A stretch of DNA of 64,000 nt from Escherichia phage Ec_YwIITB1: the sequence record PQ356294.1; one strand, written 5' to 3'. The notes beneath the pieces were generated by a model, which did no database searches, was not told the DNA's origin, and saw nothing but the letters and a program-made list of their open reading frames with translations. This document shows positions 6,312 through 52,488 of this stretch, piece after piece. A program made the position numbers and the translations under genes. The first letter of the stretch is position 1. Every line of letters begins with the position of its first letter.

Positions 6312-6929
6312 GTGATTATTTCTAAGTTTGTTAAAGTGAAAATTGTACCATCAAATTTTAAACATTATCAATCAAAGGGTTATAAATTAACACCTCTTGG
6401 AGCGGTTAAACATGGATTTAGGTATTATGAAATTGATGTTAAAGTTGAAGACATTAAAGGTAATACCGCGTATGTAAAATGCCGTTGCGATAAATGTGGA
6501 ATTGAATATAACCAACGCATTGGAAGAAACACTGATATTTGTCGTGATTGCCGTCATAAAGATAAAATGCGCAATAATTCATATGGTTCCGCGAATAAAG
6601 GAAAAACAGTAGAATGTATGCATGGCGTAAATCATCCAAGATGGAACCCAAATAAATCTGAAATGCGTGAATATATTTCATTGGTATATAAAGAAACTCG
6701 TAAGCATAAGAAAATTTGGTCAAAATGGCCAAATGCTGATAAAATAGGAGTGTGCGGTACAAAAGGTGCTTACCAACTTGATCATAAGGTATCTATCAAA
6801 TACGGTTTTGATAATTTAATTCCTGTTGAAATAATTGGCGGTATTAATAATTTAGAAATAATCACTTGGGAATCTAACCGAGAAAAATCAAAAAGAAATA
6901 GTGTAGATCTTTGGGATTTACTAGAATGA
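6312..6929 (+). CDS. HNH-family homing endonuclease (free-standing)
   Basis: ORF open from 6273 (TTG); likelier start GTG 6312 with GAGG 7 nt upstream; Cys cluster CRCDKCG...CRDCRH and H-N-H-like motif DHKVS...NLEIITWESNREKSKRN. Confidence 0.7.
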   Translation: MIISKFVKVKIVPSNFKHYQSKGYKLTPLGAVKHGFRYYEIDVKVEDIKGNTAYVKCRCDKCGIEYNQRIGRNTDICRDCRHKDKMRNNSYGSANKGKTVECMHGVNHPRWNPNKSEMREYISLVYKETRKHKKIWSKWPNADKIGVCGTKGAYQLDHKVSIKYGFDNLIPVEIIGGINNLEIITWESNREKSKRNSVDLWDLLE

Positions 6930-15894: not shown

Positions 15895-17324
15895 TTATGG
15901 ATAGGTATAGATGATACCAGTTTCTAAAGCAGTTTTATGAATGATGTATCCATTGCGTGATTCTTGAACATCAACTTCTGGATAGTCTTTCATCATCTTC
16001 TGAAGAGTGTAACGATGCAGGTAGTATTTACTGTCTGGATCTTCAGTTTTCCAATCTTTACCTTCTTCGGTCATTTTTTGGATTTCATCCATAACCCACC
16101 AGCCGCACCAGATATAAGCCGAAGTACGATGTGGAAGAGGATGAACATAAGGCAATTCACCTTCTGGTTCCGGAGCAACTTTATCAGTTACCTGAACTTG
16201 GCCTGTTGCTTTAACTGTTTTACTATCATAGTCGGTTGCTGTAACGACAGCAGTAACTTCAATAGTTTGACTTCCAATAGATGAGGTGTCAACGGTGTAT
16301 ACATTAGTTGACCCTTCTACAGGAGAAGAATCTTTCTTCCATGAATAAGTAATTTGAGCTGCTTCAGGTGCTCCGTGACATTAGCCGTAAATGTAGCCGA
16401 AGCATCTTGCTGAACGTTAATAGAAGGAGGAGTCAATGTAACCTGTGGATTCATTGTCTTCTTATTAACTGTCAATGATACTTCATTAGAAGTAACTTCC
16501 TTTGCATCATAATTTTCAGCCGTTACTTGGGCTACACACTTAACTGTTTTAGCTCCAACTGTGGTAGGAGTATAGTTAAATGTAGTAGTAGTTTCTCCAT
16601 CGACCAGAGAACCGTCAACATACCACTGATACGTAGCAGACGCTCCTGGTGGCTGTGAAGCCAAGGTAGCAGTAAATTGAACTGGGGTTCCAATAACTCC
16701 TGCTGGAGGATTAGCAGGAGTTACGGCTAACGTAGTTGTCTGTGTTTTCTTATTAACAGTCAGTGACACTTCATTAGAAGTAACTTCCTTTGCATCATAA
16801 TCTGTCGCGGTTACTTGAGCTACACACTTAATTGTTTTAACTCCGCTTGCGTCAGGAGTGTAATTGAATGTAGTGCCAGTTGCTTCGCCCACAGGAGAAC
16901 CGTCAACGTGCCATTGATACGTAGCGTTTGCACTTGGTGGCTGTGAAGCTAAGGCAGCGGTAAATTCAATTGGAGTTCCAATCACTCCAGCATCAGGGCT
17001 ACCAGGAGTTACAGCTAAAATAGTTGTTTGTGTCTTATTTTGAACCGTGATAGTTGTCGTAGTTTCTGCTGTTTCAGGTTCAGGTTCAGATTCAGATTCT
17101 GGAACTGTATTTGTTGCAACGACTTTAATAGTCTTTTGACCTGCAGGTCCTTTTAATACATAGCCAAAAGTTGCCGCTTCTCCATCTTGCGGAACATTAT
17201 CTACACTCCAAGCATAGGTAATAGTTCCATCTCCAGTTTCACCACTGGGTGTAGCAGTAAACTGCTTGGTTTCATCAATAACTCCTGTTGGGGTTTTAGG
17301 AGTTATATCAACTGTAAAAGTCAT
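15895..17324 (-). CDS. hoc: Hoc outer capsid protein with extra tandem Ig-like domain; frameshifted near 16371-16375
   Basis: 335-aa ORF 16317-17324 (starts MTFTVDITPKT) plus 86-aa ORF 15895-16155 matching the Hoc C-terminus (ends GIIYTYP); alternate frame between them reads the expected Hoc sequence. Confidence 0.85.
16464..17039 (-). repeat. tandem in-frame duplication (~288 bp unit) encoding two Ig-like domains within hoc
   Basis: Two consecutive ~96-aa blocks (ILAVTPGSPDAGVIGTPIEFTA... and TLAVTPANPPAGVIGTPVQFTA...) with matching DNA repeat; boundaries approximate. Confidence 0.7.
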
Positions 17325-28178: not shown

Positions 28179-28182
28179 CAAT

Positions 28183-28204
28183 GGGGACCGGTCCCCATAT
28201 TTTT
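28183..28204 (+). terminator. intrinsic terminator after gene 54
   Basis: GGGGACCGGTCCCC followed by T-run. Confidence 0.55.
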
Positions 28205-28493
28205 ATTTACGGAATGATATAAAAGCAGCAACTGAAGCGACTAAACTGTCTTCAATATAAACTTCAATTTTTACCGGAGCTTCTGACTCAAATTTACCTG
28301 TTACTACACCTTGAAAAATGCTTTCAGTCTGTTCTGGCTTTGAAAAATTTTCAGAAGGAAAAATTCCGAACTTTTTATCTGTTCCAAAAATTTTGATAAA
28401 TTCATCATAAACTGCTTCATTGAAAGCGTTATCAGCAGGAATAACGCCTTCAACTACAAGTTCTTGACCTAAAAAGCGTAAAGAAGATTTCAT
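28203..28493 (-). CDS. hypothetical early protein downstream of alt
   Basis: 96-aa ORF with GAGG RBS and sigma70-like promoter upstream. Confidence 0.65.
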   Translation of the reverse strand: MKSSLRFLGQELVVEGVIPADNAFNEAVYDEFIKIFGTDKKFGIFPSENFSKPEQTESIFQGVVTGKFESEAPVKIEVYIEDSLVASVAAFISFRK

Positions 28494-28501
28494 TTTGTGT
28501 T

Positions 28502-28554
28502 CCTCATGTTATGTCAGTAAGACTATTATAACACAGCACGAGGGACTTGTAAAC
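28502..28554 (-). promoter_or_regulatory. sigma70-like early promoter plus leader and RBS (cassette copy A)
   Basis: Reverse strand TTTACA, 17-nt spacer, TATAAT, then GAGG and ATG 28493; 50 of 53 nt identical to 44191-44243. Confidence 0.55.
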
Positions 28555-30611
28555 TACATCTTGAACTTTTTAGACATTCCGTTGATGTTAACCAAAGAAG
28601 CCAAGATTTGAGAAACTTCGTTTTCCTCTTCTTTTGATTCTTCTACAAGGAATTGATTAAACCCAGCCATTGGACGAACTTCACCAGTTTCCATTAGATG
28701 ATCGCCATCATATACCGATTCTTCTAATTGTTCAGAAGGAGGAACGATTGTGCCTTCAATTAGATACTTGTTATAAGCAGTTTCTTTCATCATGTACGTG
28801 CTCACTTTATTAATCTTCAGCAAAATTCCACGTGGTAGAATAACTTCAGCTTCTGATGGAAATCCTGATAAATGACCTGGAACGATAACTTTGATTCGCT
28901 CAGCCCCTTTAATTACCATACCTACGCTAGCTTCAGCATCTTCATTAGCATATGCAGAATGACTACCCATATGCATTAAATCTTCAGCATCAACAGAACC
29001 TTCTCCTTCACCAGAAAATACTGCGCCGGAATCATCTAGAGCCATATAGTTTTTACCATGCTCACCGAAGATATTTGGTTTAAGCGATGTTGATACGAAG
29101 TTCTTGAAATAGAACATTTTATTTTCAATATTATGGCGTAAAGTTTTAAAAGTAACTTCTTGTCCACGATAAAGCGTAATTCCCGGAGGAAGAACTGAAC
29201 CTTTGGCAAAGGCAGAATCCAGCGTCTCGATGTGTTTAATAGCTCGTTCCATATATTCTTCACGGGTAGAATCTGGTTTACCCAAGAGGAACGAGTTCAT
29301 TTCAACATATGAATCTGCACAATAATCTTCAATTACAACAGACTCAGCCTGAGTTAATCCTTTTGGAGTTACTTCAGTGCTTGCGTATTCATATGCCTGA
29401 GCAGCAGATTCATTAATCAATTTATAAATGCCATTCATGACAAATTGAATAATAGCTACCTTTTCGTCTGGCGTAGCTTTAGAACCTTTAACTAAATCAT
29501 TGATAATTTTCTTAATAACATCAAAGCTATTAGAAATATTAATGTCAGCGAGATCGCTCAAAATTTTATCGGTTTTATAATCAAAAAATTCTTTATTCTT
29601 TAAATATTCTTGAGAACCTTGATATGTTATATCGCTCTGCAGTCTGATAGACGGATCGCGTAAACGTGCATGGGCCAATGCAATATGATTTCGGAGGCTT
29701 TCTAGTTCATAATCGTTAGATTTAAAACGAGAAGCACTTCTCATACCACCGATAGCTCCTTTGCTGAAGTTGGAACCAATCTGAATAACGCCAGAGTTCA
29801 TTGGTCCTTCTGCTTTATATACCGGAACTTTAGATTCAAACTCTTGATATTTCTTGGCGGCGAAGCTATCGCCCTGAAGTGAAGCATCGACAGTAGAATA
29901 TTGAGCTTGCGCTGCCAATCGACGACTAATTTTAGTTTTCTGAATAACAGCTTGATCCGTGCGCTTATCATTTTCTAAAGCAATAGAAGCAGCAACAGCA
30001 ACAGCTTTAGGAACAGCATTACCTGTTTTAACATCTACATAAACATCACCAACCTTTGATTCAACTTTTGTGAATAACTCAGTTGAAATAGGAGGTACAC
30101 CTGGAATGTCTTCTAAATTGGCATTTTTACGGTAAACCATAATATATGCATACTTTTTATCATAATCCCAGATTTCCTTTAAAAGAACATATCGACCTGC
30201 TCCTTTAGTACGTACTAAACGGTCAGCAATAACTTGCATCTGACGAGCTGCGCCATTTGTTTTACTTTTTAGTACGCGGAATAGGCATGCATCAATTTTA
30301 TACTGTTTCATTGTTTGAAGAGCAGTATCAAAAACCGCATTAATGACACCAATTGGATTTCCACCCAAGTTTTTAAGTTTAACTAATGATAGTTTCTCAT
30401 TAACACCTATCATTACGATATGCATCATTTTATCGCCTGGCTTAACGTTTTTATTTGTATCACCGCCAGAGGTGTATGTACAAAATCTAAATCCAGGAAG
30501 CACACTTTCTTCGCCGGCTTGAATAGCAAAAATTTGAGGTATTTTATGCTTAGGATTTAAGTTAACAACCGGCGCCGAAGCGCCGTCAAATAATTCTGTA
30601 ATAAGTTCCAT
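28554..30611 (-). CDS. Alt-like ADP-ribosyltransferase, second paralog
   Basis: 685-aa ORF; N-terminal ~230 aa closely similar to the adjacent Alt; ART-like motifs YRGQ, FVSTSL, EAEVILPRG. Confidence 0.8.
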   Translation of the reverse strand: MELITELFDGASAPVVNLNPKHKIPQIFAIQAGEESVLPGFRFCTYTSGGDTNKNVKPGDKMMHIVMIGVNEKLSLVKLKNLGGNPIGVINAVFDTALQTMKQYKIDACLFRVLKSKTNGAARQMQVIADRLVRTKGAGRYVLLKEIWDYDKKYAYIMVYRKNANLEDIPGVPPISTELFTKVESKVGDVYVDVKTGNAVPKAVAVAASIALENDKRTDQAVIQKTKISRRLAAQAQYSTVDASLQGDSFAAKKYQEFESKVPVYKAEGPMNSGVIQIGSNFSKGAIGGMRSASRFKSNDYELESLRNHIALAHARLRDPSIRLQSDITYQGSQEYLKNKEFFDYKTDKILSDLADINISNSFDVIKKIINDLVKGSKATPDEKVAIIQFVMNGIYKLINESAAQAYEYASTEVTPKGLTQAESVVIEDYCADSYVEMNSFLLGKPDSTREEYMERAIKHIETLDSAFAKGSVLPPGITLYRGQEVTFKTLRHNIENKMFYFKNFVSTSLKPNIFGEHGKNYMALDDSGAVFSGEGEGSVDAEDLMHMGSHSAYANEDAEASVGMVIKGAERIKVIVPGHLSGFPSEAEVILPRGILLKINKVSTYMMKETAYNKYLIEGTIVPPSEQLEESVYDGDHLMETGEVRPMAGFNQFLVEESKEEENEVSQILASLVNINGMSKKFKM

Positions 30612-30614
30612 GAT

Positions 30615-32669
30615 TTATCCTTGAACGAACTTGTAAGGCATGTTTGTAATATCTATGCAAGACGCAATAATTCCAAGAGATGATTCTACTTTTTGTTTAA
30701 CATTTGATGAAACAAATGATGCAAAGTCAACTCTGTCTTCTATTTCAATATCATCTGTCATTGCAACTACTTCACCAGTTTCCATTAGACGATCACCGTC
30801 ATAAATTACTGATTCGGTGAGTTCTTCGGTAGTCATAACTTCAGCTTGAATAAGCTTGTTGTTAGTTTTAGCTGTTCCATCATTGTAAGATGCGTCGGTT
30901 ATTTTATTGACTTTGACCATCAATCCACGCGGCAAAATGACTTCCATTTCATTTGAAGGCGCTAAACTTCCACCTGGTAAAACAACGTTGACTTTATCAG
31001 CCCCAGTAATAACCCATCCAATTCCAACTAAATTATCGCTAGAATTAACAAGTCCTTCATCGTTTTTATCGATAGAAATGTTTAGACGCTTTTCGTCTGG
31101 TAAAACACCCACAGCTGAATCAGTCATCCAAGTACCAAAAATGTTTGGATATAATGATGTTGATACAAAATTTCTAAAATAAAAAACTCGATTTTTTACC
31201 AATGCTTCATATATTGAAGGAGCAGTCATGCTTTGAGCACGATAAACTGTAATGCCTTCTGGTATACGGTCACCATTTTCAAAGGCTGAATCTAAATTAT
31301 TTATCGCAGATTCAATTTCTTTTTCACTCATTACCTCATATCGTTCTGGATTATATAATCCCAAAAGAGCATTATTCATGTCTACATATCCTGAACCTAC
31401 GTATTCACGAATTCCGCGTTTTTGTGCCGGTGTGTATTTAGATGAATCTTTATTTTCGACTATAGAATGCAATGACCATCCAACGGTAAGAGCATATCCA
31501 CGTAATTCTCTTCGAATAATCTTTGTTTTTATTGCATTCCAAGAATTTTGCACTAACTCATTCGCAGCATCTTGATTTAAATGCGAATGCTTGTTAATAT
31601 TTCTTTCTAACCAAGCACCTTTATATTTTTCTAAAGTATCATCAACTATAGAAGCAATAGTTTCTAAAGTTTTTATTGAAGTAATAGATTCTTTTCGTAA
31701 TCTTTCTAAAGCTTTATTTTTTATTTCTGCATTAACATCAGATTCTTTATCTTCAGGAATTATAGAAGCTTCTCTGAATGCCATTCCAGCTGTAACACTA
31801 TTAAGAGCATTCTCTAATGCAAATCCTGAAGTAGAAATAACAGTTAATTCGTTAGCATCAGAAATTAAAGGCGCGTCAGCGGGTTTATTTAATTCTGCTG
31901 CTGAAGCCTCAAATTTTTGAAACATTGGTGTTTCAAATCTAGAAGATTCTAATGATTGACTTTGTGCAATTGCTCTACGGGAAATTTTAACTTTAACGAT
32001 TACAGCTTGGTCAGAACGTTTATCGTTTTCTTGCGCAATAGATGCAGCAATGGCCTCATTTTTAGTTACTTGAGCTCCGGTATCTTTATTGATATAAACA
32101 TCGCCGACTTTCGATTCAACTTTAGTAAAGAGCTCTGTACTAATTTCAGGAACTCCTGGAATGTCTTCTAATGATACATTTTTGCGATGTATAAGAATAT
32201 ATGCATACTTTTTATCGTAATCCCAGAGTTCCTTAAGAAGGACGTATCTGCCACCTGAACGACTACGGATAAGTCTATCAGCAATAAGTTGAATTTGACG
32301 AGCTTGACCAGCAGTTTTAGACTTAAGAATACGGAGCATGCAGGCATCAATTTTATACTGACGCATCGTTTGCATTGCAACAGTAAAAACTGAATTGATA
32401 TAATTAATTGGGCTTGGACCGAGACCTTTTAATTTAGCGATTGAACCTTTAGCAGTTAATGTAAAAGGAACAATATGCATCATTTTATCGCCCATCTTTA
32501 AATCGCGATTAGTATCACCTCCAGATGTGTAGGTACATAAACGAAAACCTGGTTGTTCAATTGCGTCATCAACATGAACTGAAAAAATTTGCGGTATTTT
32601 CTTCTTTGGATTTAAGTTTGTAATCGGAAGAGTAGTATCTTCGTCAAATAATTCTGTAATGAGTTCCAT
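30615..32669 (-). CDS. alt: Alt ADP-ribosyltransferase (virion-packaged)
   Basis: ORF open from 32672 (MMELITE); second ATG 32669 better spaced from GAGGA; motifs YRAQ, FVSTSL, EMEVILPRG; late promoter upstream. Confidence 0.85.
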   Translation of the reverse strand: MELITELFDEDTTLPITNLNPKKKIPQIFSVHVDDAIEQPGFRLCTYTSGGDTNRDLKMGDKMMHIVPFTLTAKGSIAKLKGLGPSPINYINSVFTVAMQTMRQYKIDACMLRILKSKTAGQARQIQLIADRLIRSRSGGRYVLLKELWDYDKKYAYILIHRKNVSLEDIPGVPEISTELFTKVESKVGDVYINKDTGAQVTKNEAIAASIAQENDKRSDQAVIVKVKISRRAIAQSQSLESSRFETPMFQKFEASAAELNKPADAPLISDANELTVISTSGFALENALNSVTAGMAFREASIIPEDKESDVNAEIKNKALERLRKESITSIKTLETIASIVDDTLEKYKGAWLERNINKHSHLNQDAANELVQNSWNAIKTKIIRRELRGYALTVGWSLHSIVENKDSSKYTPAQKRGIREYVGSGYVDMNNALLGLYNPERYEVMSEKEIESAINNLDSAFENGDRIPEGITVYRAQSMTAPSIYEALVKNRVFYFRNFVSTSLYPNIFGTWMTDSAVGVLPDEKRLNISIDKNDEGLVNSSDNLVGIGWVITGADKVNVVLPGGSLAPSNEMEVILPRGLMVKVNKITDASYNDGTAKTNNKLIQAEVMTTEELTESVIYDGDRLMETGEVVAMTDDIEIEDRVDFASFVSSNVKQKVESSLGIIASCIDITNMPYKFVQG

Positions 32670-32692
32670 CATATCCTCTCTAGTGTTTATTC

Positions 32693-32700
32693 TATTTATA
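32693..32700 (-). promoter_or_regulatory. late promoter for alt
   Basis: TATAAATA on reverse strand about 21 nt before the alt start. Confidence 0.55.
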
Positions 32701-36905: not shown

Positions 36906-37238
36906 TTATTTTACTACTTTCCAATGCTTCATGTCAAGTTTACCAACTTTTTTCATCTTCTCAATTAAGCGTTCTGCGCGTTGGCGAGCTGTAACATAAT
37001 GCCATTCACCTAATTCATTTTGTTCAATTTTTCCAACGATTACTGTATTCAATTCATAAATCCAACCAGTAAAGAAATTATGAACTTGAATTGTAAAGGT
37101 GAAATCTGTCCCCATACCTTCTGTTGTTTCTACTTCAATGATATCACCTTCAACTGCCATTAAGAACCACATAGTTTCATCATATTTACCATTGAAGCAT
37201 TTAGTTTTAACTGCAGCGTTCAGATTAATCGTTTTCAT
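36906..37238 (-). CDS. hypothetical protein
   Basis: 110-aa ORF. Confidence 0.6.
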   Translation of the reverse strand: MKTINLNAAVKTKCFNGKYDETMWFLMAVEGDIIEVETTEGMGTDFTFTIQVHNFFTGWIYELNTVIVGKIEQNELGEWHYVTARQRAERLIEKMKKVGKLDMKHWKVVK

Positions 37239-37314
37239 TTTATTCTCCTTTGTTTGTGTAAGATAATACTATCACAAAGGAACCATACTGTAAACAACTT
37301 TGTGCAGTCTTTGG

Positions 37315-37344
37315 AAAATAAAAAAGGACTCCCGAAGGAGTCCT
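37315..37344 (-). terminator. intrinsic terminator (reverse strand) after ORF 37349-37567
   Basis: AGGACTCCCGAAGGAGTCCT followed by T-run on reverse strand. Confidence 0.5.
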
Positions 37345-37348
37345 CAAC

Positions 37349-37567
37349 TTATGCTTTCTGCTTACCAAAACGAGAAGCATCATCTCGAAGAACCGCACGT
37401 GCTCGGCGCATGATCTTCTCAACAGTTTGATTGATACGAGAGTTCGACCCACGCTTGTAACCAGCGCGTTTAGAATCACCAACTTTCTTTTCAACTGCTT
37501 TCTTTGCTTTAGCTTGTTTTGCCATTATAAATTCTCTTTTAAATGAAAATGCAGGACTTATTGACAT
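37349..37567 (-). CDS. small basic protein, hypothetical
   Basis: 72-aa Lys/Arg-rich ORF; possible internal start at MAKQAK. Confidence 0.55.
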   Translation of the reverse strand: MSISPAFSFKREFIMAKQAKAKKAVEKKVGDSKRAGYKRGSNSRINQTVEKIMRRARAVLRDDASRFGKQKA

Positions 37568-43338: not shown

Positions 43339-43688
43339 TTAGAAAGGTCCTGGATGTCTTCTGCAAACTTGTTGAAGGAGTTGTTGATTTGTTTTTCAAC
43401 CAATCCTGGCTTATGAGCCACCACATCCGCCTTCTTTGCGTCTTTGCGCAGTTTTTCATTTTCACGCTCAATAGCAGCAATTGCCTCACGATTTTTATTA
43501 TTCATCGCATCAATATAATTATACTGAATTCGCAAATTATTTAATGCTAAAGCGTTTTCATTGGCCGTTTTTGTAATTTCTACAACAGACGTTTCTAATC
43601 TTTCAATTTTATTTTTTAAAATTAAAGAAGTTCCGCCCAATGCAATTACAATTAATAACAAACCTGTTGTCGTATTACTTAATTGCAT
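43335..43688 (-). CDS. i-spanin (inner membrane, coiled-coil)
   Basis: 117-aa ORF; N-terminal hydrophobic helix LLLIVIALGG followed by coiled-coil-like region. Confidence 0.75.
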   Translation of the reverse strand: MQLSNTTTGLLLIVIALGGTSLILKNKIERLETSVVEITKTANENALALNNLRIQYNYIDAMNNKNREAIAAIERENEKLRKDAKKADVVAHKPGLVEKQINNSFNKFAEDIQDLSK

Positions 43689-44182
43689 AAAGTTTTAATA
43701 ACCTCTATAATATCGTCTTGAGAAAGACCGTTAATTAAAATATGATGTTCAGCAGGAGATTTAGAAATTTTAAAGCATGCCTCAACATCTTCTGCCATAT
43801 CTGATGCGCTACGATTTGGATTACTAATTCCAAGACGATGTTTTCCCGTCAAAGGATTAACGATGATATAGCATTTACAGTTATTAATATGAACATTAGG
43901 TTGAGTCTGATTAATGAACACATCACAATCATATTTCGCAAGCTGATTTTCTAAAAAGACTTTCATCTCCTCAACCGCATCAGGAAGCATATCACGGGCT
44001 TGCTCAAGACGACGATTTCGATATTCTTTAATGGTCGTTTTCCGCTTGACTTGCTTAGCTAAATCTTTCTTAAGATCGGTGATATATCCAACTCGACGAT
44101 TTCCTTTAAATACAGAAATCCCATCTGTAGTATCACCGTATGCTTCAACGACCATCTCAGTAGTAATAAGCTGCAAATCCAT
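43679..44182 (-). CDS. alc: Alc transcription terminator (host transcription shutoff)
   Basis: 167-aa ORF; T4 homolog; early promoter upstream. Confidence 0.9.
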   Translation of the reverse strand: MDLQLITTEMVVEAYGDTTDGISVFKGNRRVGYITDLKKDLAKQVKRKTTIKEYRNRRLEQARDMLPDAVEEMKVFLENQLAKYDCDVFINQTQPNVHINNCKCYIIVNPLTGKHRLGISNPNRSASDMAEDVEACFKISKSPAEHHILINGLSQDDIIEVIKTLCN

Positions 44183-44190
44183 TATAAAGT

Positions 44191-44243
44191 CCTCATGTTA
44201 TGTCAGTAAGACTACTGTAACACAGCACGAGGGACTTGTAAAC
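44191..44243 (-). promoter_or_regulatory. sigma70-like early promoter plus leader and RBS for alc (cassette copy B)
   Basis: Reverse strand TTTACA, 17-nt spacer, TACAGT, GAGG, ATG 44182; near-identical to 28502-28554. Confidence 0.5.
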
Positions 44244-44246
44244 AGC

Positions 44247-45834
<1,588 letters not shown>

Positions 45835-52102: not shown

Positions 52103-52488
52103 CTACTTTTTGAAAGTTTTTCGCAAAAGTTCAATGATTTCATCTACATTGTTTTCATCAACAATGCAGTGAATTTTTGTTACGCCAGAAACCTTGTCTT
52201 CGACTTCATCTTCTTCGGAAGTCGGTTCTTTATACTCACGAAAACAATGAAATTCGTCTTCGCAAATTTCTAAAAGTCTATCTTTGAGGTAAAAATGCTT
52301 TCCGTTAGCGCACAAATGATTTCGGTTACATAATCAAAGCCATCTAAATTTGATATTGATTTAACTTCAAACCAACCACCATTTTCTTGAATGATGCCGA
52401 CCATATTAGTATTTGATGAACTAATATCAATGAAAGATTTAATACGATGTATCAATAAGTCTTGGAACAAGTTCATACTTTTTGCCAA
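52103..52488 (-). CDS. hypothetical protein (frd.3 position), frameshifted near 52302-52314
   Basis: 72-aa and 70-aa ORFs overlapping in different frames; together one ~128-aa product. Confidence 0.55.

Follow-up and report, generated by a model that had tools for sequence, protein, structure and literature searches.

Why should two unrelated early genes of a T4-type phage, alc and alt.-3, be preceded by almost the same promoter and leader? The question arises from the window, a stretch of 64,000 nucleotides of Escherichia phage Ec_YwIITB1 (PQ356294.1) that belongs to Tequatrovirus (best match HY01, 97.9%). An earlier note had pointed out a promoter-leader repeat at the two loci in the same orientation, and both copies were found there, on the minus strand. 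The note had put the repeat at about 53 bp with three mismatches; each copy is in fact 54 nt long, with one extra base at the low-coordinate end, and the copies differ at two positions, both within the -10 hexamer (TATAAT in copy A, upstream of alt.-3, and TACAGT in copy B, upstream of alc). On the minus strand the cassette reads GTTTACAAGTCCCTCGTGCTGTGTTA[T/C]A[A/G]TAGTCTTACTGACATAACATGAGGA. Searching the whole window with the 54-mer and up to three mismatches returned exactly these two sites, with none expected in 100 shuffles, and the repeat finder gave the same pair as family D7 (96% identity). The search for further copies that the note had suggested added none, as no third site in the window lies within 14 mismatches of the 54-mer. 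Elsewhere the window holds a tandem duplication (16455-17030, a 288-nt unit with 80% identity, family D1), presumably repeated domains in a structural gene.

The repeat occupies the entire intergenic region at both loci. Copy A starts on the final base of the TAG that ends the upstream ORF, copy B begins 3 nt past the TAA of rnlA, and both end 8 nt short of the ATG. In the promoter scan copy A scored 11 of 12 hexamer matches and copy B 9 of 12, with a 17-nt spacer in both and TG before both -10 hexamers; the -35 TTTACA, the spacer, the two -10 hexamers and GAGG with an ATG 8 nt later had all been described correctly. The view that the similarity amounts to the generic early-promoter consensus was rejected, the other GTTTAC promoters of the window matching in the hexamers only. 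A sigma-70-type early promoter with its leader, present at two loci, is supported. By blastn 499 phage records contain the cassette, at 997 places in all or about two per genome, upstream of alt.-3 and alc, T4 (about 123040-123093 and 136283-136336) and T2 included; the pair is a fixed feature of the genus and no peculiarity of this phage. Scans of IMG/VR and metagenomes added only about 20 loci, all close variants. The features of the two loci and the related elements of other genera are collected in the table.

Table. Features of the two cassette loci in the window and related elements in other phages
Feature	Position	Strand	Basis
Cassette copy A, 54 nt, from the stop codon of the second Alt paralog to alt.-3	28501..28554	-	Sequence search and repeat finding
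Copy A -35 hexamer TTTACA, preceded by G (GTTTACA)	28548..28553	-	Promoter scan
Copy A -10 hexamer TATAAT, preceded by TGT (extended -10)	28525..28530	-	Promoter scan
Copy A predicted transcription start (A), 7 nt past the -10, first base of the 3' arm	28518	-	Promoter geometry
Copy A predicted hairpin, 5' arm (spacer and -10), present only in RNA begun upstream	28524..28546	-	Folding
Copy A predicted hairpin, 3' arm: leader and SD GAGG (28502-28505); ATG 28491-28493	28499..28519	-	Folding
alt.-3, 96 aa, Pfam DUF5498, predicted to be driven by copy A	28203..28493	-	ORF and Pfam
Bidirectional terminator-like hairpin closing the alt.-3 unit against gene 54	28181..28198	both	Terminator scan
Second Alt-like ADP-ribosyltransferase paralog, intact; read-through RNA would enter copy A	28554..30611	-	ORF and Pfam
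Late-promoter motif TATAAATA upstream of alt, just past a terminator hairpin	32693..32700	-	Motif search
Cassette copy B, 54 nt, from the stop codon of rnlA (gene 63) to alc	44190..44243	-	Sequence search and repeat finding
Copy B -35 hexamer TTTACA	44237..44242	-	Promoter scan
Copy B -10 hexamer TACAGT (T4: TATAGT)	44214..44219	-	Promoter scan
Copy B predicted transcription start	44207	-	Inferred
Copy B predicted hairpin, 5' arm	44213..44237	-	Folding
Copy B predicted hairpin, 3' arm: leader and SD GAGG (44191-44194); ATG 44180-44182	44187..44208	-	Folding
alc, 167 aa, Pfam ALC, host transcription inhibitor, predicted to be driven by copy B	43679..44182	-	ORF and Pfam
rnlA (gene 63); read-through RNA would enter copy B	44247..45371	-	ORF and Pfam
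Gelderlandvirus alc: 5' arm in spacer TCTCCGTTT(T)G; 3' arm with SD CAAACGGAGA			
Dhakavirus alc: 5' arm in spacer TCTCCTCAT; 3' arm with SD ATGAGGAGA			
Karamvirus alc: 5' arm in spacer TCTCCATTTGG; 3' arm with SD CCAAATGGAGA			
Klebsiella phage TNG87 alc: 5' arm in spacer TCCTCATCAG; 3' arm with SD CTGATGAGGA			
Winklervirus alc: 5' arm in spacer TCCTCATTTCGT; 3' arm with SD ACGAAATGAGGA			
Kanagawavirus alc: 5' arm in spacer TCCCCATTTT; 3' arm with SD AAAATGGGGA			
Mini hairpins inside the -35/-10 spacer (coordinates of fetched regions)	L017:240-265; L019:242-265; L018:241-266; L040 upstream of CDS 727-1017; L039 upstream of CDS 6360-6698		

A property absent from the earlier note is that the cassette itself is an inverted repeat: the spacer between its -35 and -10 is the complement of the leader plus Shine-Dalgarno sequence (SD). 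Counted from the G of GTTTACA, positions 9-31 (spacer and -10) pair with positions 36-56 (leader, with the SD GAGG at 50-53), leaving positions 32-35 as the apical loop and the -10 at the top of the 5' arm. The predicted +1, position 37, lies 7 nt after the -10 on the first base of the 3' arm, just past the loop. The 64-nt region from the -35 to the ATG folds at -17.1 kcal/mol in copy A (z -3.4) and at -21.4 kcal/mol in copy B (z -4.0) of the window; for the commonest Tequatrovirus variant the values are -23.0 and -24.4 kcal/mol with 20-22 pairs, and the T2 copies reach z -4.3 and -5.1. A T-to-C change at cassette position 19 (28536 and 44225; about -18), carried by both window copies, breaks one pair of the stem. 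The 34-nt leader alone, as it would be made by the cassette's own promoter, is unstructured. The pairing of the spacer with the SD region in the hairpin would account for the conservation of spacer and leader.

Neither cassette matches an Rfam family, and reading the Tequatrovirus leader directly gave no GGAG, that is, no RegB site. At 37310-37393 (minus strand) the window does give a weak Rfam hit, to the Rhizobiales sRNA Atu_C8, whose 31 bits (E 0.006) fall short of the gathering score. As a strong terminator hairpin occupies 37324-37345, within this span, the hit is probably a chance match to that hairpin. Within CAUGAGGA (28488-28505 and 44180-44196, minus strand) an AUG opens a mini-ORF of five codons in copy A and four in copy B, whose stop overlaps the main start codon in A and overlaps or directly abuts it in B; having no SD of its own, it is probably due to chance.

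We then compared the accessibility of the ribosome-binding site in read-through RNA, begun upstream, with that in the RNA of the cassette's own promoter. The probability that the SD is unpaired was 0.001 (A) and 0.009 (B) in the former versus 0.12 (A) and 0.55 (B) in the latter. Opening the ribosome-binding site (-14 to +3) required 13-17 kcal/mol in read-through RNA versus 2-4 kcal/mol in own-promoter RNA for the copies of our phage, T4 and T2. For six other early promoters of the window the two kinds of RNA differed by 0-1.5 kcal/mol. By computation, then, the SD would be paired in RNA begun upstream.

Hairpins that bracket the -10, with unrelated stem sequences, also occur at four further minus-strand promoters of the window (G of GTTTAC at 52103, 40921, 37295 and 36903; z -3.2, -5.4, -2.3 and -4.8, respectively). 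Only the one at 37295, belonging to gene 30.8 (ORF 36906-37238), masks its own SD (7.6 versus 0.5 kcal/mol), which makes it the exception among the other early promoters compared.

The region upstream of alc was next fetched from eight further genera. In six of them (see table) the segment directly after the -35 is complementary to the SD region of the same promoter, each time with a different sequence. In Gualtarvirus the SD is masked by an arm just past the -10 (GACCTCA/TGAGGTC). A Mosigvirus-like phage has an alc promoter without a mask, the sole one among the eight, so the mask is not indispensable. RNAalifold on a MAFFT alignment of eight alc promoters gave a weak consensus with the arms out of register, and it was replaced by a test of cognate against non-cognate duplexes: cognate arms pair at -13 to -19.6 kcal/mol against a non-cognate mean of -7.9, and one of 20000 permutations reaches the cognate mean. 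In the masked genera, opening of the ribosome-binding site would require 9-19 kcal/mol in read-through RNA versus 0.8-3.6 kcal/mol in own-promoter RNA. This covariation between orthologous elements is the strongest argument that the pairing itself is under selection.

Two observations from the fetched regions concern gene structure. In Gaprivervirus EAWsc9 a PRC-domain gene stands between the early promoter and alc, leaving alc without its own promoter; here a gene has been inserted directly behind a promoter cassette. In three genomes the annotated start lies inside or upstream of the early promoter (STP4a_189, CDS 6360-6698; NHEP36 alc, 238-801; Rgz1 alc, 162-707; coordinates of the fetched regions); the true start appears to be the ATG 8 nt past the SD, for example ATGAAATCT in STP4-a, the starts apparently being mis-called because the promoter was taken as coding sequence.

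The genes on either side of the cassettes differ in their timing. In time-resolved omics of T4 (PMC9697503, supplements) alc and alt.-3 are early in RNA and protein, rnlA is early in RNA and late in protein, alt is middle in RNA and late in protein, and alt.-1 and alt.-2 are middle in RNA. By these T4 classes expression switches back to early at each cassette, behind a gene that is expressed later, and the co-regulation of the two downstream genes that the earlier note had deduced fits the published data. According to the literature alt.-3 is non-essential and of unknown function. A likely source of RNA reaching it from upstream is the late promoter TATAAATA in front of alt. Between the two, the window carries two full-length Alt-like ADP-ribosyltransferase genes in tandem (28554-30611 and 30615-32672; repeat families D2, D11, D14 and D16); of the second paralog T4 retains only the remnants alt.-1 and alt.-2. 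Upstream of rnlA (45400-45432, minus strand) a MotA-box-like TGCTTC stands 20 nt before TACTAT and may be a middle promoter; Hinton's table of mapped T4 middle promoters has none for rnlA, and the motif is a prediction.

Our best explanation, which we hold to be somewhat more probable than not, is an early promoter built inside an inverted repeat, the hairpin masking the SD in read-through RNA and the own-promoter RNA being translated. Polymerase arriving from upstream, through rnlA for copy B and from the late promoter through the Alt genes for copy A, would transcribe both arms; a hairpin of about 20-22 bp would then form in the RNA and bury the SD, so that this RNA would serve for the translation of neither alc nor alt.-3. 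Transcripts of the cassette's own promoter would begin with the first base of the 3' arm, lack the 5' arm, be unable to form the hairpin and be translated. Translation of both genes would in this way be tied to their own immediate-early promoters. The repeat, the promoter motifs, the thermodynamics, the cross-genus covariation and the phage distribution were observed or computed directly; thermodynamics, covariation and precedent point to the translational effect. A point against the masking is that the 5' arm begins 7-10 nt past the upstream stop codon, so that a ribosome terminating there might unwind part of the helix.

How far does variation within Tequatrovirus bear on this? About 30 loci yielded 12 distinct copy A and 9 distinct copy B sequences, in which the leader hardly varies and the differences fall in the 5' arm, the -10 and the loop. 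In a set of six genomes copy A differs by 7.2% and copy B by 3.0%, as against 8.4-9.4% for third codon positions in the genes that follow. Substitutions in the stem keep the pair in about seven cases and break it in three or four, with about 59% expected by chance, which is no significant pair-preserving bias; there is too little variation within the genus for a covariation test.

One alternative is a plain duplicated strong promoter, whose inverted repeat is incidental or a DNA-level operator or cruciform and whose near-identity reflects recent copying only. The missing bias just described agrees with it, as do the divergence of copy A at close to the synonymous rate (7.2% versus 8.4%) and the folding of the antisense strand, which is nearly as stable (-15.8 and -18.4 kcal/mol). 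Given that fold, only the differing arm sequences of the genera exclude a DNA-level role: eight genera keep the complementarity between spacer and own SD with different sequences, which rules out both a shared protein operator and chance. The spacer bases in question are, moreover, no part of the generic early consensus. We regard this alternative as improbable. Less so, though still unlikely, is that the stem-loop chiefly stops or slows transcription from upstream, as proposed for the PeSLs of RB49 and phi1, with SD pairing secondary. The T4 temporal class shifts sharply at both cassettes, other early promoters of the window have -10 hairpins that do not touch the SD, and an RB49 stem-loop lowers downstream lacZ expression as much as a strong terminator (PMC2839356). 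The cassette, however, does not have the G+C-rich stem with U-run of an intrinsic terminator: no U-run follows the 3' arm (tails AACACAAAAUG and CUUUAUAAUG), and the terminator scan of the window omits it. None of the eight further genera has a U-run after the stem, the tail often being A-rich, and what co-varies is specifically the pairing that involves the SD region, something a terminator could do without.

The stem might also serve as a processing site, cut by host RNase III or another nuclease to separate the upstream message and to free or destroy the downstream ribosome site. With 20-22 bp and few irregularities the commonest Tequatrovirus stem has a length that suits RNase III, but the stems of other genera, with 9-13 contiguous pairs and large loops, are short for this enzyme, and no Rfam family covers the region; we consider such processing very improbable. 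Slightly lower still do we place translational coupling, where the SD stays closed unless the ribosome finishing rnlA or the Alt paralog melts the base of the hairpin. An upstream stop codon does lie 0-4 nt before the -35 in all genera examined, and the first bases of the 5' arm pair with the SD. The 5' arm, however, starts 7-10 nt past the stop codon, which in terms of ribosome footprints is at or beyond the reach of a terminating ribosome, a helix of 10-22 bp would re-form fast, and in T4 the upstream and downstream proteins fall in different temporal classes.

With SD masking in read-through RNA as the preferred reading, the second copy remains to be accounted for. The earlier note had regarded the cassette as a substrate for modular recombination, and this holds for one ancient copying event only: each locus has the same flanks in all of the approximately 20 genomes and contigs read, so the comparison of flanking genes that it had called for gave no indel breakpoints at either locus, and conserved flanks with about two copies per genome speak against current breakpoints. 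Even the Alt paralog that precedes copy A, variable as it is, has its 3' end preserved as far as the cassette. Crossing-over between the direct repeats would delete 13-16 kb, including the ligase gene 30 and gene 31.

Exchange of short patches between the copies is possible today, and rare variants common to both copies of one genome occur (C19 in the window, TAATC in T2). Ongoing A-B gene conversion is nevertheless not supported, as the mean number of A-B differences is hardly lower within (3.0) than between (3.5) the six genomes, and LF73P3 has C19 in copy A only. C19 in both window copies reflects either a short conversion or a parallel mutation; neither window copy with its flanks was matched exactly in any database phage.

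The alt.-3 promoters of other genera bear on the origin of the pair. Spacer-SD complementarity is absent from those of Gaprivervirus, Mosigvirus, Dhakavirus and Gelderlandvirus (-1.9 to -4.6 kcal/mol), versus -12 to -16.6 kcal/mol at alt.-3 in Tequatrovirus. Sequence identity says nothing of the direction of copying, the cassette being identical at 34-41 of about 57 positions to alc and alt.-3 promoters of other genera alike, and the direction was read from the architecture: the masking cassette is probably ancestral at alc, and the alt.-3 copy a Tequatrovirus-specific duplicate dating from the ancestor of the genus. Short-patch conversion probably brought it there in place of an early promoter of a different type, with GTTTACA and CATGAGGA as anchors; we infer that the junctions fall within these two elements, which both promoters already shared. 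The copy A variant GTTCCTTATG of T2 and bov10K1 pairs better with the alt.-3-specific flank AAC, as would be expected from adjustment after the copying.

The alt.-3 promoters of the same four genera, and the alc promoter of Mosigvirus, contain a mini hairpin inside the -35/-10 spacer. Its stems co-vary (GCAC/GTGC, CCACA/TGTGG, CATCC/GGATG, ACACC/GGTGT), and its loop is SD-like, (A)AGGA(AG).

To the full picture we give even chances: that alc is gated by a switch depending on where the transcript starts, kept in at least eight genera by co-varying sequences, and that this portable 54-nt switch was copied onto the unrelated alt.-3, where the arm was then adjusted to the new flank. On this view T4-type phages would restrict synthesis of Alc, and of Alt.-3, strictly to RNA from the first minutes, and modules of promoter plus translational gate would move between loci as single units. 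Alc is the T4 factor that shuts off host transcription, and the reviews examined give no account of what limits its dose and timing. A gate built into the promoter would explain the conserved spacer and leader, as well as one cassette common to two unrelated early genes behind later-expressed genes. It would add an early-promoter version with reversed logic to the masking hairpins of the T4 lysozyme type and, on the direction of copying suggested above, offer a concrete example of a regulatory cassette copied between loci.

Among known systems, the cassette fits the published PeSL class, in which a stop codon, an AT-rich tract, sigma-70 boxes, a stem-loop, an SD and an ATG follow one another (PMC2839356, Arbiol et al. 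2010; PMC4122927, Comeau et al. 2014). The PeSL stem-loop mostly lies between the boxes or overlaps the -10, and the T4/PST consensus is TTTACW N17 TAYWAT (PMC2839356, PMC4122927). Like these elements the cassette is repeated in the genome and has a stop-codon boundary, sigma-70 boxes about 17 nt apart, a stem-loop that overlaps the -10 (z -3.4 and -4.0) and an SD with ATG, and its alt.-3 copy implies past movement as a unit. As to the AT-rich tract, only copy B shows a clear one, with GAAAAATTATAAAAAATTTAT upstream; the 30 nt upstream of copy A are about 68% A+T, near the assumed genome average. Unlike PeSLs it is not found at breakpoints of indels or replacements in hyperplastic regions (499 records, about 20 flanks read), its copies lie 13-16 kb apart around essential genes, and its stem-loop, without a terminator tail, reaches and buries the SD. 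A role in masking the SD is not part of the PeSL description, and older T4 literature may already mention an alc hairpin.

The closer parallel in function would be T4 e, soc, 49 and I-TevI (also mobE and segB), in which RNA that can be translated comes from a promoter located within the 5' arm (review PMC3014915); alc is not among the masking-hairpin cases of that review, all of which have late promoters. In the T4 cases long transcripts sequester the SD or AUG, and a promoter in the region of the 5' arm gives RNA without that arm, as is predicted for the cassette. The arrangement is conserved in relatives in both; at alc the structure is kept despite sequence change across eight genera (1 in 20000 permutations). 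In the T4 cases, however, the promoters are late (TATAAATA) and the gene kept silent in early read-through RNA is a late or selfish one, whereas the cassette has an immediate-early sigma-70 promoter, with no TATAAATA in or beside either copy, and the logic would be reversed, an early gene being silenced in later or longer RNA; its 5' arm, moreover, lies in the -35/-10 spacer. With the canonical T4 early promoters (UP, -35, TGn and -10; Hinton 2010, PMC2988021) the cassette shares GTTTACA, the 17-nt spacer, TGn, a near-consensus -10 and early downstream genes. The other early promoters of the window share only the hexamers, whereas the spacer and leader of the cassette are near-identical at two loci and complementary to each other.
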